A DNA stretch of 32,000 nucleotides from Pseudoalteromonas tetraodonis. Lineage in GTDB: Bacteria > Pseudomonadota > Gammaproteobacteria > Enterobacterales > Alteromonadaceae. The stretch is from positions 2,670,001 to 2,702,000 of the forward strand of contig NZ_CP011041.1 of NCBI RefSeq assembly GCF_002310835.1, in the 5' to 3' direction. Shown in pieces: positions 1,455 to 18,036 of this stretch. The number at the start of each line of letters is the position of its first letter. Position 1 is the stretch's first letter. Under the pieces are notes generated by a model. The model saw only the letters and a list, made by a program, of their open reading frames with translations. It was not told the DNA's origin and did no database searches. Position numbers and translations under genes: made by a program.

Positions 1455-1591
1455 TGGTTGGCAAGCTATTGGTTGGCACTTGCGTTGTATTGGTAATTTC
1501 AATAGCTGTATTAAAACACTATGAAGTGGCAATAAAGGGGAGTAAAAATGGCAAACTGCTGAGCAATTGTGGCAAAAAAATGGCAATTGTG
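1455..1591 (+). promoter_or_regulatory. Array of six same-strand TGGCA(A/C) repeats in the pdsO/pdsR divergent intergenic region (candidate response-regulator operators)
   Basis: TGGCA starts at 1459, 1474, 1527, 1549, 1570 and 1581. The first two sit inside a perfect 9-bp direct repeat TGGTTGGCA (1455-1463 and 1470-1478). The last four are spaced 22, 21 and 11 bp. GCAATTGTG also repeats at 1563-1571 and 1583-1591. Confidence 0.45.
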
Positions 1592-1657: not shown

Positions 1658-2353
1658 ATGAAAAAAATAGCTATCGTTGAAGATGAAACTGCCATTCGCG
1701 AAAACTACATAGAAATGCTAAGCGCTCAAGGCTATCAGGTAAGTGGTTATGAAAACCGCCCTCAAGCAGAAGTCGCTTTTAAAGAAGCACTCCCCGATTT
1801 AGCCATTGTTGATATTGGCTTAGGCCATGAAATAGATGGCGGCTTTTTACTGTGCCAAACACTGCGTTCACTTTCTAAAACCTTACCAATTATTTTTTTA
1901 ACCGCTCGCGACAGCGAAATAGACACCGTATGCGGCCTGCGCATGGGCGCCGATGACTACTTAACCAAAGATATTAGCTTAGCGCATTTAGCCGCGCGTA
2001 TTGGTGCGCTATTTCGCCGAATGGAAGCATTAGAGCAACCCGCCGATGCCAACGCATTAATAATTCGCGGTCAACTAACACTCGACACGCAACGCATGCA
2101 GGTGCTTTGGCAGCAACAGTTGGTTGATTTAACCGTAACTGAGTTTTGGATGCTGCATTCACTCGCCCAACGACCTGGCCACGTTAAAAGCCGTAATGAG
2201 TTAATGAGCGATGCTAAAATTTATGTAGACGACAGTACCATTACCTCTCATGTAAAACGCATTCGTAAAAAGTTTATAGCACTCGATAGCCAGTTTGACT
2301 GCATTGATACCGTGTATGGCATGGGCTACAGGTGGGAGCAACCCACATGCTAA
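1658..2353 (+). CDS. pdsR: OmpR-family response regulator (receiver plus winged-helix), sortase-system associated
   Basis: 231-aa ORF. Receiver motifs: IAIVEDE, DLAIVDIGL, FLTARD. C-terminal winged helix: LTVTEFWMLHSLAQRPGHVKSRNELM...YGMGYRW. Its stop overlaps the start of the downstream kinase gene (ATGCTAA). Confidence 0.85.
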   Translation: MKKIAIVEDETAIRENYIEMLSAQGYQVSGYENRPQAEVAFKEALPDLAIVDIGLGHEIDGGFLLCQTLRSLSKTLPIIFLTARDSEIDTVCGLRMGADDYLTKDISLAHLAARIGALFRRMEALEQPADANALIIRGQLTLDTQRMQVLWQQQLVDLTVTEFWMLHSLAQRPGHVKSRNELMSDAKIYVDDSTITSHVKRIRKKFIALDSQFDCIDTVYGMGYRWEQPTC

Positions 2354-4482
2354 GATTTGGCCTACGCAGTAAATTTATTCTACTTTCATGCTTTTTGTTT
2401 TTGTTGCCATGGTTAGGCTACGAGTACGTATGGGAAATGGAAAAGTTTTTACGCCAAGGCCAAGAAAAAACGCTCGTAGGCACTACACGTGCACTGGCCA
2501 CGGCCCTGCACGAACGTCCCGCTTTATTTGACGAACAAACCAACTTTTTAGACCAAGTTGTAAAAGGCCGCGATCTCTATGCTTATAATTTAAAAAGCCC
2601 AATTCAGCTCGATGGTAAACTCAGCGACTGGGACGCTTACCAATCGCTATTTTGGCTTTATGACAAACGCTACTTACAAACAGCCAATGATAACCATCAA
2701 CTGAGCAACTTATCATTTAGCCACATGGTAGGTAAGTTTGATAATTACTTATATGCTGTATTTAAAGTCACAGATGACACTGTAATTTACCGTGCTAAAA
2801 ACAGCCTCAGCATTACCAATAATGACTATGTAAAAATTGGCCTAAAAAACCCTGATGGGCAATTTAATACTTATATTATTGCTCCGCGCCAAGATGGCTG
2901 GGTCAACGCATTTGATGCCAACAGTAAAATGCCTTTTACTAAAATTCAGGGCTTTTTTAAACAAACTGAAACAGGTTACAACCTTGAGCTGCGCTTTCCT
3001 TTGAGTATGCTTGGCAATAAACTGGGGTTTGCCATTGCCGATGTTGATAGTAAACAACCAAACCAAACACCTAATATCATGTCTACATCCAACTTAAATA
3101 ACCCAAATGATTTAGGCTCAGTACTGGTGCCCTCCCCTGAGATAAACCGTATATTAAAAGGCATGGGCCACAGCGGCAGTCGCATTTGGGTGGTCGATAA
3201 TCATCACCGTGTTTTAGCGCAATCGGGCAGTATTCAAAATGCCGATGGCGTATGGGCTGATGGGCTAAAAAATCAAGCGCCAAAAACCGCATGGCAACGC
3301 TTTGAACAAACCTATTTGCATCCTTTGTATTATAAAATTTTAACGCGTCCTGAAGATGAATTTATAGATACCTTACACGATGTCGCTTCAATGCAAGGCG
3401 CTCATTTAGCCAAAGCACTGAAAGGTCAACCGGCCTCGTCTTGGCGACTCACCCCCGATAACAAAGCGGTGATATTATCGGCCGCGTATCCTATTTGGAT
3501 TGAGGATAAGGTTATTGGCGCAGTTATAGCCGAAGAAACCACTAATGGCGTGCGCACACTGCGTAATAAATCGCTGGAAAAACTATTTAATGTGATTTTA
3601 GCGGTCATGTTAATTGGCACAGTCACTTTGTTCTTTTTTGCCTCACGTATATCAAGTCGTATTAGGCGACTACGCGATACAGCAGAGCAAGCCATTGATG
3701 CACAAGGGCGGGTAACAGGCTATATAAATTACAGCGATGCCAATGACGAAATTGGCGATTTATCGCGTAGCTTTTCAAATATAGTGAGCCGACTTGGTGG
3801 CTATACCGATTATTTAGAAAATATGTCGTCGCGCTTATCTCATGAGCTGCGCACGCCGGTTGCGGTTGTACGTTCATCACTTGAGAACTTACAAAGCTTG
3901 CAGCAAAGTGAACTGAGTCAAAAATACCTTGAGCGTGCCAGTGAAGGAGTTGAGCGTTTAGGGAAAATAATTACCACTATGAGTGAAGCAACCCGCCTTG
4001 AGCAAAGCATTCAAAGTAATGAGCCAGAGCCGTTTGATTTACAAAAAGTGATTAGTGGTTGTATGCAGGGCTACCAACTTACTTACCCTAACCAGTTATT
4101 TACACTCAACATTTGCCAAAGCACACTGCCAATGCAAGGTGCCCCTGAATTTATAGCGCAACTGCTCGATAAGCTAATTAATAATGCCTTGGAATTTAGT
4201 GAAGCCAACACCGCGATTGAAGTCAGTCTGAAGCAAAGCGAAAACAAAGCAACATTAACGGTAAGTAATACAGGTACTTTATTGCCTGAGGGGCTTACTG
4301 AACATATTTTTGATTCTATGGTATCGGTGCGCAGCCAACAAATGCAGCAACAGCCGCATTTGGGTTTAGGGCTATATATTGTCAGGCTGGTGTGTAATTA
4401 CCATAACGGCAGTGTTATCGCGCATAATAATGAGCAAGACAATGGTGTGGTGTTTACCGTGAACCTGCCTTTAAATAATTAA
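2347..4482 (+). CDS. pdsS: Sensor histidine kinase with a large periplasmic domain (sortase-system associated)
   Basis: ORF 2332..4482. The ATG at 2347 overlaps the pdsR stop, which suggests translational coupling. It has an N-terminal TM segment, about 400 aa of periplasmic region, a second TM segment (LFNVILAVMLIGTVTLFFFA), a HAMP-like region, an H-box SHELRTPVAVV, an N-box LINNALEF and a G-box GLGLYIV. Confidence 0.85.
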   Translation: MLRFGLRSKFILLSCFLFLLPWLGYEYVWEMEKFLRQGQEKTLVGTTRALATALHERPALFDEQTNFLDQVVKGRDLYAYNLKSPIQLDGKLSDWDAYQSLFWLYDKRYLQTANDNHQLSNLSFSHMVGKFDNYLYAVFKVTDDTVIYRAKNSLSITNNDYVKIGLKNPDGQFNTYIIAPRQDGWVNAFDANSKMPFTKIQGFFKQTETGYNLELRFPLSMLGNKLGFAIADVDSKQPNQTPNIMSTSNLNNPNDLGSVLVPSPEINRILKGMGHSGSRIWVVDNHHRVLAQSGSIQNADGVWADGLKNQAPKTAWQRFEQTYLHPLYYKILTRPEDEFIDTLHDVASMQGAHLAKALKGQPASSWRLTPDNKAVILSAAYPIWIEDKVIGAVIAEETTNGVRTLRNKSLEKLFNVILAVMLIGTVTLFFFASRISSRIRRLRDTAEQAIDAQGRVTGYINYSDANDEIGDLSRSFSNIVSRLGGYTDYLENMSSRLSHELRTPVAVVRSSLENLQSLQQSELSQKYLERASEGVERLGKIITTMSEATRLEQSIQSNEPEPFDLQKVISGCMQGYQLTYPNQLFTLNICQSTLPMQGAPEFIAQLLDKLINNALEFSEANTAIEVSLKQSENKATLTVSNTGTLLPEGLTEHIFDSMVSVRSQQMQQQPHLGLGLYIVRLVCNYHNGSVIAHNNEQDNGVVFTVNLPLNN

Positions 4483-8100: not shown

Positions 8101-9450
8101 TTAAATTAAACTATCTACGTCAATCTCATGCTTTTTAATCAACTTATAAAAATCAGAACGGTTGCGCTTGGCAAGTTTAGCGCCTTCTGCCACATTGCCC
8201 CCTGCCATTTTCAGGGTATTAATTACATAGTCTCGTTCAAACTCTTTTTTAGCTTCATTAAGTGATAATGGCTCAACGTTGCTTTCATTACTGTTGAGCG
8301 CACTAAGCACTAAATGTTCAGATATAACCTCACTGGGAGTCAACGCAACCACCTGCTCCACCACATTTTGTAATTGACGTATATTACCTGGCCAATCATA
8401 CCTTACTAGGGCATGCATGGCATCGTTTGCAAAGCGCTTTTCTTTTTGCTCCATACGCTTTGCGATGTTGGCACTAAAAAAGTTGGCTAATAAGCTAATA
8501 TCTTCACGGCGTTCACACAGCGGGGGCAACTTTAAGTTTACGACGTTTAACCGGTAGTATAAATCTTCTCTAAACTGTTGATTACTAATCGCTTCAGGCA
8601 GGTTTTTATGGGTTGCAGAAACAATTCGTACATTAATGGGAATTTCTTCTTGAAAGCCCACAGGGCGAATGGTTTTTTCTTGCAGCACACGTAACAACTT
8701 AACTTGTAAATTAAGCGGCATATCACCAATCTCATCTAAAAATAAGGTGCCGCCTTGTGCTTGCTGAAATAGGCCTTGGTGATCTTTTACAGCTCCTGTA
8801 AATGCCCCTTTTTTGTGACCAAATAGCTCTGATTCTAATAGCTCACCAGGCACGGCCCCACAGTTTATTGCCACAAATGGACCGTCACTAACATGGCTAT
8901 GCTGATGAATCGCCTGCGCAAGCAACTCTTTACCGGTACCGCTGGCACCAGAAATAAGCACGTTAACTTGTGTAGGCCCTAATAGTTTCACTTGCTCCAA
9001 CAAATGCAGCATAGCGCCACTGCGGGTGACAATATTACTTTGCGGGGCGACTTCATCATTATTAACCCCATGTATCTCAATGGCTTTGGCTAGGCTGTCA
9101 AACAGCTCATCTTTATCAACGGGTTTTGTGATAAAGGCAAAAATACCTTGCTTGGTGGCCTCTACCGCATCAGGGATAGATCCATGAGCCGTCATCATAA
9201 TAACAGGCAACGCAGGGTAGCGGTTTTGCAATTGTCGGTGCAGCGCCATGCCATCCATTTCATCCATTCTTAAATCGGTGATCACCGCATCAAACACTTG
9301 GTTTTTAAGTAGTTGTAATGCGTTCATACCACTATCACAGGTCGTTACTTCATAACCCTTTGATTGAATTCGAATCGCCAGTAATTGCAGCAAGCTGGCA
9401 TCATCATCAACGAGTAAAACTTTAGCACTTGATGGAAGTGTGACTGACAT
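8101..9450 (-). CDS. glrR: Sigma-54-dependent response regulator, GlrR/QseF ortholog
   Basis: Receiver-domain strings are almost identical to remembered E. coli GlrR: [10 protein letters not shown] and [31 protein letters not shown]+ Walker A: GASGTGKE. Sigma-54 contact loop: [24 protein letters not shown] and a C-terminal HTH ([23 protein letters not shown]) are also present. Confidence 0.88.
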
Positions 9451-9452
9451 AG

Positions 9453-9986
9453 TTACTGCTCCTTGGTTTCTTCACGTAGTAAAAGTTGCTGTTCAATTGC
9501 GGCTAATGACGACAAGGTTTTTTGCATTTTGGCGTTCAATGCTTGCTGTTGTTTTTTTGCATCTATTTGCATTAATACGTGCTGTTTTTGCAGCCATAAA
9601 TAGTGCTTTATATCATCGGGCCAATAGTACGCCTGATCCAGCTTAAGTAATTGACTCATCACAGTATTGGGGTCACTACTAAGCTTTAAACATGCTTTAC
9701 TAAAAAACGCTTTCAGTGCTTGCTCCCCTAAGTAGGTTTCATTGCTAGGCGCTAATTTAAAACCACCGCACTGATTGGCATGCCAAGCAATAACTTGCGC
9801 TGCAGAGGGATATATTGGCTCTGATTTTGGCCGAGGTTTGGGATTTGGCTGATTCGTTTTGCTATCTGGCTGAGAGGGTACATTTAATGCTGATTCACCC
9901 TGTGTTTGAGTGTTTGTTATTTCACACCCAGATAAAAAAACAAGACTGCTGGTTAGCCATACAATAGCCATTAAACGCGCAGACAT
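9453..9986 (-). CDS. qseG: QseG/YfhG-like lipoprotein encoded between the kinase and regulator genes
   Basis: Trimmed to the ATG at 9986 (MSARLMAIVWLTSSLVFLSGC, lipobox LSGC). The kinase stop and this start form TAATATG. The C-terminal coiled coil ...LSSLAAIEQQLLLRE resembles the E. coli QseG ...LTDIERQL region. Its position between glrK and glrR is diagnostic. Confidence 0.6.
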   Translation of the reverse strand: MSARLMAIVWLTSSLVFLSGCEITNTQTQGESALNVPSQPDSKTNQPNPKPRPKSEPIYPSAAQVIAWHANQCGGFKLAPSNETYLGEQALKAFFSKACLKLSSDPNTVMSQLLKLDQAYYWPDDIKHYLWLQKQHVLMQIDAKKQQQALNAKMQKTLSSLAAIEQQLLLREETKEQ

Positions 9987-9987
9987 A

Positions 9988-11442
9988 TTATTTAACTCCT
10001 TTATTTTTATAGGGGATGACAATGTTAAATCGACAGCCTTGCGGCTCATTATGCTCAATTTTTAGTTGCCCATGTAACTGTTCAACTGACTCTTTGACTA
10101 TAGTAAGGCCTAAACCACTGCCTTGTAAGCTAATCTCTTTGGTATGTTTACCTTGATAAAACGCCCCAAAAACATGATCTCTTTCATGCTCTTTAATGCC
10201 ACAACCCTCATCTGCTACTTGCATATTTAGGCCGTTATTTTCTAGACTCAAGCTAATAGTAACGACTTGGTTTGGCTGAGAAAACTTTAAGCCATTGGAA
10301 ATTAACTGAATTAAAATCATTTCAATTAACTCCCGTGGCAAACTAAGAGAAATATTAGGTAAACTATTGTGCCAAATAAGCGATTGTTCTCGCGCATTTA
10401 AGCGGTGCTCAAAGTGGTTATTTACCTTTTTTATTAGCTGATTAAATTCCACTTCACTGACGTTGTCTTTACTGGTGCGAATGGCGTTATAACTCAATAA
10501 ACTGTCTATCATAGTACGTAGCCTCACCATCGATTGACTGATCAGCCCAAGTACCGCTTTTTGCTCGTTATTGATGGGGCCAACGATTTCATCGGCTAGT
10601 AATTCAGTGCCCTCAACCATAGAAGCCAAAGGGGTTTTTAATTCGTGAGTAACGTGGCGTAAAAATGTATCTTTTTGTTGTTCTAACATATGCAGCTGCG
10701 CTTGCACCCACTGCAACTTGTTACCTAACTCTATGAGTTCAGCCGACCCTTGCACCGATATTTTTTGCTGCCAATCTCCTTGGCCTAACTTATCAATCAC
10801 TGAGGTTAAGCTTTTTAAGCGCCCGCTTATGCGCCACAAAAAACCGCCGCCAACAAGCAGCGTTAAAGGCGTAAGTGCAATCAACCAGTTTATAAAGGAA
10901 GCTTGTAAATTTGTGAGCTTAATTTGGTTTTGAGTGATTTTGGCTTCATTTTCCTCACGTAACCACAATGTTAGCTCCGCTAGTGTTTCGCTGATTGGCA
11001 CAAATAATTCAGCTTGTTGACGCGCTTCAACCACAAGTTGAGTATGCGCCGTTTGCAAAGTATCCGTTAGCCGTTGCCATTGGTGTGTATTTGCTTGGTT
11101 ATTTGAAAGCTGTTTTAGCTCATTGATGTTTTGCAATGATGATTGCCATTTATCTACGATTAGCTTATCGAGTGAGTCGCTCTTTAATACCCAGTTTTGC
11201 CTAGTTGCTCTTTCTAAACTATTAAGCTCTTGCTTAAGCAGATTAAACGACTTAGTTACTTGGTAATTATTACTCACAATTTGCTGAGTGACCGCTAATT
11301 GCTTATTTAATACATTTAAAAACACAATAACCACTATAGATAAGGGCAACAGCGACAACAGCATGCTCATTACAAATTGGCCAATTAAATTGGGGCGCCA
11401 ATTTATCAATGCTTTATATTTTTCAGCCATGACTGCGGGCAT
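9988..11442 (-). CDS. glrK: Sensor histidine kinase, GlrK/QseE ortholog
   Basis: The N-terminus RPNLIGQFVMSMLLSLLPLSIVVIVF parallels E. coli GlrK (PRSLRQLVMLAFLLILLPLL). It has a periplasmic helical region, a second TM segment, HAMP, an H-box THELKTPLASM and an ATPase G-box GSGLGLTIV. The alternative ATG at 11430 is equally possible. Confidence 0.82.
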   Translation of the reverse strand: MPAVMAEKYKALINWRPNLIGQFVMSMLLSLLPLSIVVIVFLNVLNKQLAVTQQIVSNNYQVTKSFNLLKQELNSLERATRQNWVLKSDSLDKLIVDKWQSSLQNINELKQLSNNQANTHQWQRLTDTLQTAHTQLVVEARQQAELFVPISETLAELTLWLREENEAKITQNQIKLTNLQASFINWLIALTPLTLLVGGGFLWRISGRLKSLTSVIDKLGQGDWQQKISVQGSAELIELGNKLQWVQAQLHMLEQQKDTFLRHVTHELKTPLASMVEGTELLADEIVGPINNEQKAVLGLISQSMVRLRTMIDSLLSYNAIRTSKDNVSEVEFNQLIKKVNNHFEHRLNAREQSLIWHNSLPNISLSLPRELIEMILIQLISNGLKFSQPNQVVTISLSLENNGLNMQVADEGCGIKEHERDHVFGAFYQGKHTKEISLQGSGLGLTIVKESVEQLHGQLKIEHNEPQGCRFNIVIPYKNKGVK

Positions 11443-11529: not shown

Positions 11530-11547
11530 TGTCTCTAAATAGCGACA
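11530..11547. promoter_or_regulatory. GlrR-type enhancer site TGTC-N10-GACA
   Basis: TGTCtctaaatagcGACA is a perfect match to the TGTCN10GACA consensus defined for E. coli GlrR at glmY/glmZ. It lies about 140 bp upstream of the sigma-54-like -24 element. A degenerate second copy, TGTT-N10-CACA, is at 11596-11613. Confidence 0.45.
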
Positions 11548-11654
11548 AGTTAAGCAATTGATTTAAAAAATTTTAAACGCTTATAACTGCAAAATTGTTG
11601 CATAAAACACACAGTTACTTGTAAAAATTACGCACCAATCATCACAAAAAAACA

Positions 11655-11667
11655 TAACTCACTGATT
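11655..11667 (-). promoter_or_regulatory. IHF-like site between the enhancer and the sigma-54 promoter
   Basis: The minus strand reads AATCAGTGAGTTA, which fits WATCARNNNNTTR. It sits in an AT-rich context centred about 50 bp upstream of the predicted start site. Confidence 0.3.
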
Positions 11668-11685
11668 ATTAATAAAAATAAATAT

Positions 11686-11700
11686 TGGCACCATTTTTGT
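11686..11700 (+). promoter_or_regulatory. Sigma-54-type -24/-12 promoter candidate driving the EF-hand operon
   Basis: TGGCAC (11686-11691), N5, TTGT (11697-11700). The GG-N10 spacing is correct, but the -12 dinucleotide is GT rather than the canonical GC. The ATG of the first EF-hand gene is 39 nt downstream of the element. Confidence 0.45.
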
Positions 11701-11738
11701 TACGAGAACATTAATATTAATCTAAAAAGAGCCAAGGA

Positions 11739-11972
11739 ATGTTCAAAAACAATTTACAGAACGCTGCACTTATCGGTTTGTGCCTAACCAGTACTCATTT
11801 ATTCGCCCTTGATGTAGATGCTGAATTTAATCGTTTAGACAAAGACAGTAATGGCACATTAAGTGAAGCTGAAGCAGGTGAAGATGCTTTATTACATGAG
11901 AACTTTGCACAGATAGACACCGATGAAAACGGGCTCATATCTCTAAACGAATTTAAGCTGTTTATAAAATAA
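11739..11972 (+). CDS. Small secreted two-EF-hand calcium-binding protein (paralog 1)
   Basis: Signal peptide MFKNNLQNAALIGLCLTSTHLFA. Canonical 12-residue loops DKDSNGTLSEAE and DTDENGLISLNE. Confidence 0.8.
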   Translation: MFKNNLQNAALIGLCLTSTHLFALDVDAEFNRLDKDSNGTLSEAEAGEDALLHENFAQIDTDENGLISLNEFKLFIK

Positions 11973-11984
11973 AGGAGTACATTC

Positions 11985-12212
11985 ATGAAACAACTAATTG
12001 GTGCTTTTTCGCTCCTATTTTTAGCTATTAGTGCCACCGCACTGGCATCGCCATTAAATGTACGTTTTATGCATTTAGATAAAAATATGGATGACCAAAT
12101 ATCGCTTATTGAGGCAAAGCAAGATAAACAATTACTTAAGCAGTTTGCCGATTTAGACAAAGATAATAACGAGATGATTTCTAAAAAAGAATTCCAAAAC
12201 TTTAAACCTTAA
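11985..12212 (+). CDS. Small secreted two-EF-hand calcium-binding protein (paralog 2)
   Basis: AAGGAG SD 7 nt before the ATG. Signal peptide MKQLIGAFSLLFLAISATALA. Loops DKNMDDQISLIE and DKDNNEMISKKE. Confidence 0.8.
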   Translation: MKQLIGAFSLLFLAISATALASPLNVRFMHLDKNMDDQISLIEAKQDKQLLKQFADLDKDNNEMISKKEFQNFKP

Positions 12213-12248
12213 GTTTAGATTCAAGTTTAATCTATTAGTATAGAGTTA

Positions 12249-12323
12249 AAAGCACTTGCCATAATCCCTGAGGGAGTGTGTAAACGGATTTAATGTTGGG
12301 ATTTAAATTATGGCAAGTGCTTT
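12249..12323. repeat. 17-bp perfect inverted repeat enclosing a 41-nt structured loop, between EF-hand gene pairs
   Basis: AAAGCACTTGCCATAAT (12249-12265) pairs with ATTATGGCAAGTGCTTT (12307-12323). Inner pairings: AATCC/GGATT and CCC-TGA-GGG. It is followed by TTTATTTCATTATT. Confidence 0.6.
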
Positions 12324-12368
12324 ATTTCATTATTGCCAGCAATTAAAATATGCCTTGGAACGCCAACC

Positions 12369-12605
12369 ATGAAAATACAGCTTCTCCTTATTGGTGCTTT
12401 ACTATTTGTTAGCCATAGTGCATGTGCACTTGATGTAAAGCAACGCTTTGAACATCTAGACACCAACAACGACGAGTATTTAACCCATAGCGAGCTTGCT
12501 GCTCAGCCTCAGCTATTAAACTCATTTTCAAATTGGGATGAAAATCAAGACAACAGAATTTCTTTAACTGAGTTTAAAAACTATCTAACCACCAATTTGT
12601 ACTGA
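12369..12605 (+). CDS. Small secreted two-EF-hand calcium-binding protein (paralog 3)
   Basis: Trimmed to the ATG at 12369 (MKIQLLLIGALLFVSHSACA signal peptide); the ORF track starts at a TTG at 12333. Loops DTNNDEYLTHSE and DENQDNRISLTE. The mature N-terminus LDV... is the same as in paralog 1. Confidence 0.78.
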   Translation: MKIQLLLIGALLFVSHSACALDVKQRFEHLDTNNDEYLTHSELAAQPQLLNSFSNWDENQDNRISLTEFKNYLTTNLY

Positions 12606-12613
12606 GTATTTAG

Positions 12614-12850
12614 ATGAAACCTATCCGCCATATTATTTTACTAACGCTTACTGTTGTTAGCTGCATGAGCTTTGCGACAAATAGCTATATTACCTCAGAA
12701 TTTGAAAAACTTGACCGTAATCAAGATGGCTTTTTAACTCGTTCGGAAACTGCCAGTGATCCTGCTTTATGGTCACGTTTTGGCAGTTACGACCGTGATA
12801 AAGACGCACAATTGTCATTAAGCGAATATAGTTTGTACGCCAGTAAATAA
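12614..12850 (+). CDS. Small secreted two-EF-hand calcium-binding protein (paralog 4)
   Basis: Signal peptide MKPIRHIILLTLTVVSCMSFA. Loops DRNQDGFLTRSE and DRDKDAQLSLSE. Starts 8 nt after paralog 3. Confidence 0.8.
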   Translation: MKPIRHIILLTLTVVSCMSFATNSYITSEFEKLDRNQDGFLTRSETASDPALWSRFGSYDRDKDAQLSLSEYSLYASK

Positions 12851-12860
12851 ATAGCTCCCT

Positions 12861-12892
12861 CAAATAAAGCCTAGTTAATTAGGCTTTATTTG
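12861..12892 (+). terminator. Rho-independent terminator after the EF-hand cluster
   Basis: CAAATAAAGCCT / loop AGTTAATT / AGGCTTTATTTG forms a 12-bp stem with a T-rich 3' arm. Confidence 0.6.
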
Positions 12893-13058
12893 AGAAGATT
12901 AAACAAATTCTTTCCTGTTAACACGCAATCTATCCTACCCTGAATTTGCTTGCTCTAGCTAAAAGCTGGGCTTATTCGACTATTAATAAATTATGCTATT
13001 GGTATTCTAAATTTGAGTTTGCTACTGTGATAGTACAAATAATAACAACATACCTCTT

Positions 13059-16737: not shown

Positions 16738-18036
16738 TTATGCCTTTTCAAGTAGGGTACGTGCTACGGTGCGCATACCTTGTGTAGTTGCACCTGAAGC
16801 CCATTGACTTGTGCTACCACCCATATTAAATGCAGCAGCTAAATCGATGTGTACCCAGCCTTTGCCATCGTTTGGCACAAAGCGAGATAAGAAACCAGCG
16901 GCGTTAGATGCACCACCGAAACCACCGCCTTTTTGGGCGCGGCTATTTGCTGTATCCGCATACGGCGATGGGCAGTTTTGTTGATGCCACTTTTCAAGTG
17001 GTAATGGCCATGCGGCTTCCATTTCTTGTGACGCAAAGTCTTCCACTTCACGCACTAGCTCTTTATCAAGGGCAAACAATGCGTTGTACTCTTGACCAAC
17101 AGCAACAAGGGCGGCACCAGTAAGGGTTGCCGCATCAATAATAAGTGGAGCGCCTGTCTCGCCTGCGGCCATTAAGCCATCAGCCAATACTAAACGCCCT
17201 TCAGCATCGGTATTTACAATTTCAACGGTTATGCCATTTTTGTAAGTAAGAATGTCACCTAGTTTGTATGCATTACCCGAAATTAAGTTCTCTGCACAAC
17301 ATAAAAACAACTTAATACGCTTTTCTACGCCACGGCTAATTGCCAGTGCCAAACCTGCGGTTACCGTTGCTGCACCACCCATGTCGCACTTCATACCCAA
17401 CATACCTTCGCTTGGTTTAATTGAGTAACCACCTGAGTCAAACGTAATACCTTTACCAACAAGTGCTGCGCTTACCGGTGCGTTCTCATCGCCAGTTGGG
17501 TTGTAATCAAGCTCAAGTAATACTGGCGGACGCTCACTACCACGACCAACGGCATGAATACCAATCCACTGCTGTTCTAATAGCGCATCGCCTTTTATGA
17601 TTTGATAGCTAACATGCTCTGGTGCAAGTGATTGAATAAATTCAGCGGCTTTTTCAGCTAAGCTTTCTGGGTAAATGTCATCGGCGGTACCATTGATCAT
17701 TTCGCGCGCCCACGTTGCCGATGCTTTTAAATCAGCGAGTTCTTTAAGATCAGATTGTGCGTTATCAACAAACTCAACACCGTTTAGTACTTTTGGTGAT
17801 ACAAAGCCTTGGTAAAAAGCCCATTGGCTCTCTGTGCACCATACATCACCTTCAAGAACAACATTTTTAATGCCTTGATTTGCAATTGTACGACCCGCTT
17901 TTTGCACATTTTTTAATGTTTCTTGCTCAGATAAATGAACCGTTGCGCCGTGTTCGTTAAAAGATAATGACGCACTTTCGCCCCAATGCCCTGGTGCCAA
18001 CTGCTCGCTTAATTGAACAACAAATTTTTCACTCAT
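16738..18036 (-). CDS. pepB: Aminopeptidase B (M17 family)
   Basis: Collinear with remembered E. coli PepB: GRGSERPPVLLELDYNPTGD, LVGKGITFDSGGYSIKP, KCDMGGAATVTA, KLFLCCAENLISGNAYKLGDI and NTDAEGRLVLADG. The ATG at 18036 (MSEKFVV) follows an AAGGA SD. Confidence 0.92.
   Translation of the reverse strand: MSEKFVVQLSEQLAPGHWGESASLSFNEHGATVHLSEQETLKNVQKAGRTIANQGIKNVVLEGDVWCTESQWAFYQGFVSPKVLNGVEFVDNAQSDLKELADLKASATWAREMINGTADDIYPESLAEKAAEFIQSLAPEHVSYQIIKGDALLEQQWIGIHAVGRGSERPPVLLELDYNPTGDENAPVSAALVGKGITFDSGGYSIKPSEGMLGMKCDMGGAATVTAGLALAISRGVEKRIKLFLCCAENLISGNAYKLGDILTYKNGITVEIVNTDAEGRLVLADGLMAAGETGAPLIIDAATLTGAALVAVGQEYNALFALDKELVREVEDFASQEMEAAWPLPLEKWHQQNCPSPYADTANSRAQKGGGFGGASNAAGFLSRFVPNDGKGWVHIDLAAAFNMGGSTSQWASGATTQGMRTVARTLLEKA

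Follow-up and report, generated by a model that had tools for sequence, protein, structure and literature searches.

The stretch of DNA analysed here (the window; 32,000 nucleotides (nt) of Pseudoalteromonas tetraodonis contig NZ_CP011041.1) contains three closely packed genes on the minus strand, for a response regulator, a lipoprotein and a GlrK-like sensor histidine kinase, and four small EF-hand genes divergent from them on the plus strand. A spacer of 296 bp, the length given in the first-pass annotation of the window, separates the first EF-hand gene from the start of the glrK-like gene (11442, minus strand). That annotation had recognised in the spacer a GlrR-type enhancer, a site resembling those of integration host factor (IHF), and a sigma-54-type promoter aimed at the EF-hand genes. 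This spacer and its putative promoter are the subject of our analysis. The features are collected in Table 1.

Table 1. Features of the window discussed in the text, with positions counted from the first letter of the window.
Feature	Position	Strand	Remarks
glrR-like response regulator gene	8101-9450	-	receiver, sigma-54 activator (GAFTGA), C-terminal helix-turn-helix
lipoprotein gene, qseG position	9453-9986	-	177 residues; lipobox LSGC; C-terminal coiled-coil motif LSSLAxIEQQLLLRE
glrK-like sensor histidine kinase gene	9988-11442	-	Pfam HAMP, HisKA, HATPase_c
box 1 (putative upstream activating)	11530-11547	.	TGTCTCTAAATAGCGACA, exact TGTCN10GACA, centred ~-173
IHF-like site 1	11551-11563	-	AATCAATTGCTTA, 3 bp past box 1
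box 2 (putative upstream activating)	11596-11613	.	TGTTGCATAAAACACACA, centred ~-107
IHF-like site 2	11655-11667	-	TAACTCACTGATT; reverse complement AATCAGTGAGTTA matches WATCARNNNNTTR
sigma-54-type -24/-12 element	11686-11700	+	TGGCACCATTTTTGT, TGGCAC-CATTT-TTGT; ATG (11739) 38 nt downstream
EF-hand gene 1	11739-11972	+	77 residues, N-terminal signal-peptide-like segment, two EF loops
EF-hand gene 2	11985-12212	+	75 residues; 12 nt past gene 1; Pfam EF-hand_6 26.2 (cut-off 25)
conserved hairpin, genes 2/3	12249-12323	+	17-bp stem, 41-nt near-invariant loop
EF-hand gene 3	12369-12605	+	78 residues from ATG 12369; EF-hand_6, EF-hand_1, EF-hand_7 over cut-offs
EF-hand gene 4	12614-12850	+	78 residues; 8 nt past gene 3; EF-hand_6 26.8 (cut-off 25)
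inverted repeat after gene 4	12859-12894	.	18-bp arms; likely transcription unit end
dedicated sortase system genes	regulator 1658-2353, kinase 2332-4482, pdsO 706-1479	pdsO -	

The response regulator contains the Pfam domains Response_reg, Sigma54_activat and AAA_lid_14. Its top NCBIfam family is GlrR (NF011695; 604 bits), with NtrC as the runner-up at 416 bits. Aligned with E. coli GlrR, the protein shows 56% identity over 440 residues, which take in the phospho-acceptor region, the GAFTGA motif and the helix-turn-helix with its recognition helix, where 13 residues of the regulator align with RNRTEFYKLLSRH of E. coli GlrR. The resemblance to GlrR seen in the first pass, GAFTGA included, is thus borne out. 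The kinase is 99% identical to a protein listed under 'MULTISPECIES Pseudoalteromonas', and its homologues are named GlrK in some sources. The lipoprotein had been identified as QseG, an assignment that we cannot uphold. It has no match in Pfam or NCBIfam, and a profile of 14 of its sequences (orthologues were collected from 19 loci) gave a probability of 0.7% when compared with E. coli QseG by hhalign. The likeness consists of the lipobox and, by eye, a C-terminal L..L..IE.QL..R pattern in a non-significant BLASTP alignment (E = 3.3). Given that neither the family searches, nor BLASTP, nor the profile comparison detects homology, 'qseG' is a label by position only, and the protein is a positional analogue. 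The gene order kinase, lipoprotein, sigma-54 response regulator is kept in every related locus inspected.

In the spacer itself, box 1, box 2, IHF-like site 2 and the -24/-12 element all lie where the first-pass annotation had placed them, but a second IHF-like site (site 1) had been overlooked. Both IHF-like sites match WATCARNNNNTTR, and they flank the promoter-proximal box 2. The half-sites of box 1, TGTCTC and GCGACA, are exactly E. coli half-sites. By the usual -24/-12 numbering, transcription would be predicted to start at ~11712. A consensus scan found no sigma-70-like site in the spacer on either strand. TGTCN10GACA occurs once in the 32 kb (0.43 matches expected in the window and 0.004 in the spacer), TGGCAC-N5-TTG occurs twice in the window against 0.17 expected, and the joint chance expectation of the motifs for one spacer is ~2 x 10-6. 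The pattern WATCARNNNNTTR is common in AT-rich DNA (13 matches in the window against 4.6 expected) and therefore carries little weight by itself. Taken from the window alone, with its single exact box against 0.43 expected and its many IHF-like matches, the motifs might be put down to coincidence in AT-rich intergenic DNA, and the question has to be settled by comparison with other genomes.

A GlrK-alignment scan, restricted to one genome per species, yielded 80 loci, which were oriented on glrK and compared in their upstream DNA. The conservation profile was computed on 52 non-redundant sequences and the cassette was counted on 81. Box 1, box 2 and TTGGCAY-N4-TTTG lie together upstream of the divergent gene in 66 of 81 glrK-like loci, among them representatives of Pseudoalteromonas, Aliikangiella, Thalassotalea, Psychrosphaera, Hahella and Porticoccaceae. 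The arrangement is thus conserved next to glrK in related genomes, a comparison that the first pass had proposed. The boxes share the family consensus TGTYGC-N6-GCRACA, and each is followed by an IHF-like site. In the 52 sequences, information content peaks at box 1 (TGTtGC.Aaat.GcgACA), which is conserved in position, at TAAnnnnTTGAT right after it, at box 2 (TGTTGCaAaa.agacACA), at a second TAAnnnnTTGAT, and at TTGGCA/TTTG. Box 2, described in the first pass as a weaker copy, is in fact the best conserved element of the spacer. IHF-like site 1 has at most one mismatch to WATCARNNNNTTR in 42 of the 52 sequences and lies on the same strand in 49; site 2 has at most one mismatch in 49 and is fixed in orientation. 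Shuffled sequences reach this level in 8 of 52.

The spacings are as telling as the motifs. Box 1 and box 2 are 65-66 bp apart in 63 of the 66 loci (66 bp in the window), and the -24 element follows box 2 at one of three spacings, 80-82 bp (6 loci), 90-93 bp (49 loci) and 100-102 bp (11 loci), with no values between. As intermediates are lacking, the three classes are whole helical turns apart. Box 1, by comparison, lies anywhere between -11 and 354 bp from glrK. With the one distance fixed and the other variable, the boxes are phased with the EF-hand promoter and not with glrK. The motifs are also enriched at the expected place. Strict boxes number 41 in the glrK upstream spacers against ~19 elsewhere in 1.0 Mb, and of the latter ~12 represent a single conserved site within glrK, while at least three belong to spacers but fall beyond the counting window. 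TGGCAY-N5-TTG is found 62 times at the correct place and orientation and 33 times elsewhere on both strands of the 1 Mb of flanking DNA. Position-specific conservation, fixed spacings and enrichment over the flanks refute an origin of the motifs by chance, which we consider vanishingly improbable. The observation is real and, at the level of sequence, confirmed; it is the comparison, and not the window alone, that excludes chance.

An EF-hand gene follows the cassette in the loci that bear such genes (Hahella does not belong to these), ~50 nt on in most. Homologues of glrK with as little as ~30% identity have one to six small tandem EF-hand genes divergent from them in Pseudoalteromonas, Aliikangiella, Pleionea, Thalassotalea, Psychrosphaera, Oleiphilaceae, Porticoccaceae, Thalassomonas and Colwellia. 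The Methylobacillus locus inspected has no divergent EF-hand gene beside its glrK homologue. One locus deserves separate mention. In strain RW-H-Ap-1 (L005), EF-hand gene 1 is broken directly after its start codon, ~300-560 nt upstream of glrK, by an insertion of ~270 bp that is GC-richer than its surroundings, has terminal inverted repeats (GGGTCTGTTGA...TCAACAGACCC) and resembles a miniature transposable element. The promoter of this locus is canonical (TGGCACCATAATTGC).

We also scanned metagenomes with the dual boxes alone and read 80 of the resulting loci. In about 18, a -24/-12 element lies 55-110 bp beyond the boxes, and in at least 10 of these EF-hand open reading frames (ORFs) follow; L121, L127 and L128 are further motif-found cases with EF-hand genes. 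Two loci, L120 and L118, were annotated and contain genes for a kinase, a small unannotated protein and a sigma-54 regulator, divergent from EF-hand and outer-membrane beta-barrel genes, with the promoters TGGCACAGGGATTGCT and TGGCACGGGATCTGCA, respectively. A search by motif alone thus finds the same gene arrangement again, indicating that the enhancer motif by itself predicts it. Most metagenome matches are arrays resembling clustered regularly interspaced short palindromic repeats (CRISPR), with a period of 64-68 bp and units such as TGTTGCGTAGATGCAACA and TGTTGCGGATTGGCGACA (L089, L092, L096, L097, L102, L103, L109, L112, L122-L124, L132, L137, L138 and others). These look like CRISPR repeats that happen to hold the palindrome, and would be false positives in any regulon scan.

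The distant glrK clade (~30% identity) has a further palindrome, TGTTGCTAAATGGCGACA and variants thereof, inside glrK, ~350 nt from its start. It was seen in L050, L052, L055-L062, L066, L070, L072 and L074, ~290 nt into the tblastn match (for example at L055:6291), and persists even though the amino acids that it encodes change. A third regulator site is one possible explanation, a coding constraint (VAxWQ) another.

Do the boxes serve the EF-hand genes at all? They might mainly autoregulate the glrK-lipoprotein-glrR operon, with the regulator as a classical repressor or activator of a sigma-70 promoter, the link to the EF-hand genes being secondary or absent. Autoregulation is common among two-component systems, and in the window no more than 88 bp separate box 1 from the start codon of glrK. 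In the P. ruthenica group (the -11 bp case) box 1 runs into the position where glrK is estimated to begin, and the distant clade conserves a box-like palindrome within glrK. The spacings just described speak for the other side, since it is the distance to -24 that falls into helical-turn classes while the distance to glrK drifts. In addition, the minus strand of the spacer has no sigma-70-like promoter, and every box pair recovered by motif is oriented toward a -24/-12 element and an EF-hand gene. We consider it unlikely that autoregulation is the main role of the boxes; as an added function it would be compatible with an activator-dependent promoter for the EF-hand genes.

The -24/-12 element is the part of the spacer for which the first-pass annotation itself had voiced a caveat, namely GT in place of GC at -12. 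In the 52 non-redundant loci, TTGGCA and TTTG are near-invariant at the spacing seen in the window, and the base at -12 is T in 33, A in 10, G in 6 and C in 3; the window, with T, follows the family norm. The E. coli pspA promoter (TTGGCACGCAAATTGTA) has the same TGGCAC-N5-TTGT form with T at -12, a list supported by chromatin immunoprecipitation (ChIP) shows GT at -12 for Salmonella pspA, pspG and hydN, and homologous metagenomic loci carry the canonical GC. The caveat is softened by these parallels, but it is sharpened again by matrix scoring, a check proposed in the first pass, which placed the element outside the validated range. Our sigma-54 matrix was built from 29 Salmonella intergenic sites; it is small and enteric, and its penalties are driven by zero counts.

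The score is one of several points that weigh against the proposed promoter and its assignment to a GlrR-type system. Under the Salmonella matrix the window site reaches 7.9 bits, compared with 16.1-23.5 bits for the training sites, or 10.7-11.4 bits with heavier pseudocounts, the full range for the training sites being 14.8-23.5 bits. With 7.9 bits it ranks 12th among 64,000 positions (5-12 overall), and about four equally good matches per window would be expected by chance. The canonical C at -12 is missing. Of the eight bases that the E. coli consensus specifies, box 2 lacks two, and in the closest relative (L001) the left half of box 1 is degenerate and can be considered lost. The 604 bits of the regulator fall short of the NCBI GlrR equivalog cut-off of 763 bits. 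In BLASTP the kinase aligns with E. coli GlrK at 33% identity over cytoplasmic residues 182-477 only, leaving the periplasmic sensor part unaligned, and the lipoprotein, as described above, has no detectable homology to QseG. Finally, two relatives keep the sensor system after losing its EF-hand output (see below). As to the matrix, its penalties fall on the pyrimidine at position 7, the T at position 15 (-12) and the C at position 18, and the bases at 7 and 18 never occur in the training set. With only 29 sites and zero-count penalties, and with conservation being decisive, we regard the low score as a caveat and not as a refutation. It does mean that the sigma-54 assignment rests on the invariant core, the fixed phase of the boxes, the adjacent obligate sigma-54 activator and the homologous textbook promoters.

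A low enteric matrix score and a C at -12 in just three of 52 family members would also be expected if the element were no sigma-54 promoter at all. TTGGCA matches the sigma-70 -35 hexamer TTGACA at five of six positions, and TTGGCA...TTTG could be such a -35 box, or the site of another protein, with housekeeping polymerase reading the EF-hand genes. However, at 16-18 bp downstream, where a -10 box would lie, the information content of the 52 sequences is near zero, with no conserved hexamer; the consensus scan finds no sigma-70 site either. What is conserved is TTTG, exactly at the -12 position. The neighbouring regulator, with its GAFTGA motif, is an obligate sigma-54 activator, GC-richer homologous loci carry TGGCAC-N5-TTGC at the same distance from the boxes, and pspA uses the form seen in the window. 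We judge a sigma-70 promoter at this position to be quite unlikely.

The promoter could also depend on sigma-54 and yet respond to another enhancer-binding protein encoded elsewhere, the likeness to GlrR boxes being coincidental. Only 32 kb of the genome were inspected, the family boxes read TGTTGC/GCAACA where E. coli has TGTCGC/GCGACA, and there is the sub-threshold equivalog score of the regulator. Opposed to this are the association of boxes, promoter and regulator gene across dozens of genera, motif-found loci included; the decay of the boxes in a locus that has lost the promoter and EF-hand genes (L038); the exact E. coli half-sites of box 1 in the window; and the spacing TGT-N12-ACA, which is unlike the TGT-N10-ACA of NifA-type sites. 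It would be very surprising if the activator proved to be a different protein.

Two other matrix matches in the window may be recorded here. A second TGGCAC-N5-TTGT, TGGCACTTGCGTTGTATT at 1474-1488 (plus strand), scores 10.1 bits with the enteric matrix; 184 nt downstream of it is the response-regulator gene of a 'proteobacterial dedicated sortase system' (Table 1). The element may be a promoter or a chance match. The best match in the window, TGGCATAACCGTTGAAAT (14.9 bits; 17219-17236, minus strand), lies inside pepB in sense orientation. Intragenic sigma-54 sites are known from ChIP studies in E. coli and Salmonella, and this one may be a chance match.

The EF-hand genes are unlikely to be the whole regulon. 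In P. arctica (L036) the boxes, the promoter and all EF-hand genes are gone, whereas kinase, lipoprotein and regulator are kept beside an amidohydrolase gene. Strain H105 (L038) retains the same trio beside an amidohydrolase gene, together with decayed boxes, an IHF-like site and part of EF-hand gene 4; its -24/-12 element is lost. A sensor system that is kept without its EF-hand output must either have other targets or be decaying there. The two loci argue that the EF-hand genes are not the only output of the system; the first-pass view of these genes as the local output is supported, but not if it is taken to mean the sole one.

Different divergent genes were seen in Hahella, Cellvibrionaceae-like and Pleionea loci (L051, L060, L065, L067, L071, L073, L076, L077; L069, L075, L078). 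In Hahella and Cellvibrionaceae-like loci the divergent gene encodes, as judged by eye, a BON-domain-like (OsmY-like) periplasmic protein; three Hahella loci retain both boxes and the -24/-12 element. One Hahella locus and Pleionea loci combine EF-hand, BON-like and OmpA-like genes, again by eye. In the P. ruthenica group (L043-L046, L049), the promoter is followed by a GTG-initiated ORF, ~100-330 nt past the -24 element, and after it by a single EF-hand gene. The ORF is small and of low complexity, with a signal-peptide-like start (VRRVVLVVALILCVTLVSAKQP...) and a conserved leader (GGAGAGCCACCCTGCGGTCTAAAGACC). A small RNA in the 350-440 nt gap of this group was considered and rejected, because the gap holds a small ORF with a signal-peptide-like start.

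The four EF-hand proteins of the window have 75-78 residues, signal-peptide-like N-termini and two EF-hand loops each, and are predicted to be periplasmic and to bind Ca2+. The start of gene 3 was chosen by alignment with its paralogues. The product of gene 1 scores above the cut-offs of Pfam EF-hand_6, EF-hand_1 and EF-hand_5, and its AlphaFold2 model shows an EF-hand pair with a predicted local distance difference test score of at least 90 for residues ~30-77. The best matches of the model in the PDB are calmodulin lobes and polcalcin; sequence and fold searches returned generic calmodulin-type relationships only. Matches to the NCBIfam lanmodulin and XopAW families were dismissed as too weak (22-26 bits against cut-offs of 120-135). 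Homologues of EF-hand protein 1 are confined to Pseudoalteromonas and lack a studied function. In NCBI and UniRef, several of the Pseudoalteromonas EF-hand proteins from this operon bear the name 'cag pathogenicity island protein Cag25', apparently an annotation error that has been propagated.

The 156 nt between EF-hand genes 2 and 3 contain an inverted repeat with perfectly matching 17-bp arms and a loop of 41 nt, ATCCCTGAGGGAGTGTGTAAACGGATTTAATGTTGGGATTTAAAT. In 39 Pseudoalteromonas loci this hairpin occurs once per locus, in the same orientation and 20-45 nt before gene 3. Three of its stem pairs covary, and its G-U wobbles fit the plus-strand RNA only. It matches no Rfam family, and a covariance model found no matches in more distant clades, which indicates that the hairpin is lineage-specific; the distant clades sometimes have an ordinary terminator between EF-hand genes. 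Possible roles of the hairpin are those of an attenuator or terminator, of an element for processing or stability, or of an RNA that binds a protein or ligand. The first pass had spoken of a four-gene operon. Within the pairs 1-2 and 3-4 the genes are 12 and 8 nt apart; with a conserved hairpin between genes 2 and 3 the joining of the pairs is not established. The inverted repeat after gene 4 has a T-run on the minus strand only, so that its function as a plus-strand terminator is something we infer.

No small RNA was found at this locus, in agreement with the first pass: Rfam gave no match in the window at the gathering threshold or in a permissive scan of 11650-12950, and a tRNA scan found nothing. 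One match to the SodC thermometer was discarded as noise (28 bits against a gathering score of 125).

Taking these results together, the 296-bp spacer is probably an activator-dependent sigma-54 promoter for the EF-hand genes, similar to that of glmY and fed by the adjacent kinase and regulator. The GlrR-type enhancer, the IHF-like sites and the -24/-12 element proposed in the first pass find support in the conservation footprints, the likeness to glmY, the homology of the regulator and the metagenome search. The GlrK-like membrane kinase would phosphorylate the GlrR-like regulator, probably with the help of the co-encoded lipoprotein. Regulator dimers would bind box 1 and box 2 and form the active ring; IHF, bound at sites 1 and 2, would bend the DNA such that the ring meets sigma-54 polymerase at the -24/-12 element. 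ATP hydrolysis would then open the promoter for transcription from ~11712. The predicted transcript would certainly include EF-hand genes 1-2, and genes 3-4 if polymerase passes the hairpin. Regulator binding, IHF binding, sigma-54 dependence and the start site are what we infer from sequence comparison. As to the signal, our guess is periplasmic Ca2+ or a state of the envelope linked to divalent cations, with the EF-hand proteins acting as buffers or feedback partners. Marine bacteria live in 10 mM Ca2+.

The kind of element described here is known; new, as far as the sequences tell, would be the class of target, the spread across taxa, the divergent arrangement and the non-canonical -12. GlrK/GlrR (QseE/QseF) has been described as enterobacterial, and its occurrence is said to match GlmY/GlmZ strictly (PMC4152352). 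The same type of regulator, with its boxes, IHF-like sites and sigma-54-type promoter, occurs well outside the enterics and faces genes for secreted EF-hand proteins. We regard this as a well-supported regulatory prediction for many marine and other bacteria. It yields a predicted regulon for marine bacteria, a consensus broadened to TGTYGC-N6-GCRACA, and a natural series of helical-phase and -12 variants for studies of the sigma-54 mechanism. Its value is that of a strong comparative prediction; it proposes no new kind of mechanism. In literature combining EF-hand or calcium with GlrR, GlrK, QseE, QseF, RpoN or Pseudoalteromonas, subscription-only papers excluded, no such link is described, and to this extent the first-pass statement that none was known has held.

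In E. coli K-12 the stimulus of GlrK/GlrR 'remains unknown so far', the targets being glmY, glmZ and rpoE (PMC4152352, PMC6075780). A broader and much more tentative idea is that systems of kinase, lipoprotein and GlrR-type regulator were ancestrally wired to EF-hand proteins (in some lineages also to BON or outer-membrane proteins) across Alteromonadales, Kangiellaceae, Cellvibrionales-like bacteria and GC-richer Proteobacteria. The parts would form a circuit for envelope homeostasis responding to periplasmic Ca2+ or divalent cations, and the glmY/glmZ promoters of enterobacteria would have arisen later, by re-use of the enhancer-IHF-sigma-54 cassette. If this speculation is correct, the EF-hand link points to the long-sought stimulus of QseE/GlrK-type kinases, and the hypothesis of a divalent-cation or envelope signal could be transferred back to QseE in pathogens.

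Several known systems resemble parts of the locus. The CarSR system of Pseudomonas aeruginosa, with carO and carP, is a Ca2+-responsive two-component circuit that induces periplasmic proteins. In Caulobacter, CaBP is described as a periplasmic EF-hand protein (PMC13171946). What the two have in common with the window is the pairing of an envelope sensor with secreted proteins related to Ca2+, and the occurrence of small Sec-exported EF-hand proteins in Gram-negative bacteria. The regulators of these systems are not known to be sigma-54 activators, unlike that of the window, where the Ca2+ link is deduced from the EF-hand domains alone. The E. coli pspA promoter is closer in its core, TTGGCAC-N5-TTGT with T at -12, and its activator gene, pspF, is divergent as well. 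It depends on IHF and belongs to the theme of envelope stress. PspF differs from the regulator of the window in having no receiver domain and in being controlled by PspA instead of a kinase, and the upstream sites of pspA differ in sequence from our boxes. E. coli rpoE P2 is described as a QseF-activated sigma-54 promoter with upstream activating sequences similar to those of glmY (PMC6075780). As described there, it parallels the window in that a regulator of the same family acts on a protein-coding gene whose function relates to the envelope, but the target is a cytoplasmic sigma factor and is not adjacent to the regulator genes.

The closest relative of the putative promoter is that of glmY, where binding of GlrR to the boxes, the need for IHF and sigma-54 dependence have been shown by experiment (PMC3045617, PMC4152352, PMC6075780). 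The glmY/glmZ promoters of E. coli, Yersinia and Salmonella have TGTCN10GACA-type palindromes more than 100 bp upstream, as in the window (PMC3045617, PMC4152352). Read from the E. coli genome, the glmY boxes ABS1 (TGTCTGTAAATCACGACA), ABS2 (TGTCGCTTTCTGGCGACA) and ABS3 (TGTCTCTTTTTAGCGACA) take the form TGTC(G/T)C-N6-GCGACA. TTAACTCATTGATTTT begins one base past ABS2, ABS3 lies 63 bp downstream of ABS2 and is followed by TAATCAGTACGTTA, and TGGCACagttaCTGCA (TGGCAC-N5-CTGC) lies 107 bp after ABS3. Box 1 is identical to ABS3 at 15 of 18 positions, the three differences all being in the spacer bases, and between the family consensus TGTYGC-N6-GCRACA and the E. coli boxes the sole difference is the fourth base of either half-site. 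In glmY as in the window, an IHF-type site (TTAAnnnnTTGATTT) lies directly past the distal main box and a second one between the proximal box and the promoter, TGGCAC is found at -24, and the regulator genes adjoin. The distance between boxes is similar, with 63 bp in glmY against 65-66 bp in the cassette family. There are also clear differences. From the proximal box to -24 it is 107 bp in glmY against 90 bp in the window. Two boxes are evident in the window and three in glmY, -12 reads TTGT in place of CTGC, and the overlap with a sigma-70 promoter known from glmY is not seen in the window. The putative promoter is divergent from glrK, whereas glmY lies upstream of it in the same direction. 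The product of glmY and glmZ is a small RNA, that of the window a set of secreted EF-hand proteins; and while the literature describes the glmY system as enterobacterial, the window comes from a member of the marine Alteromonadales.

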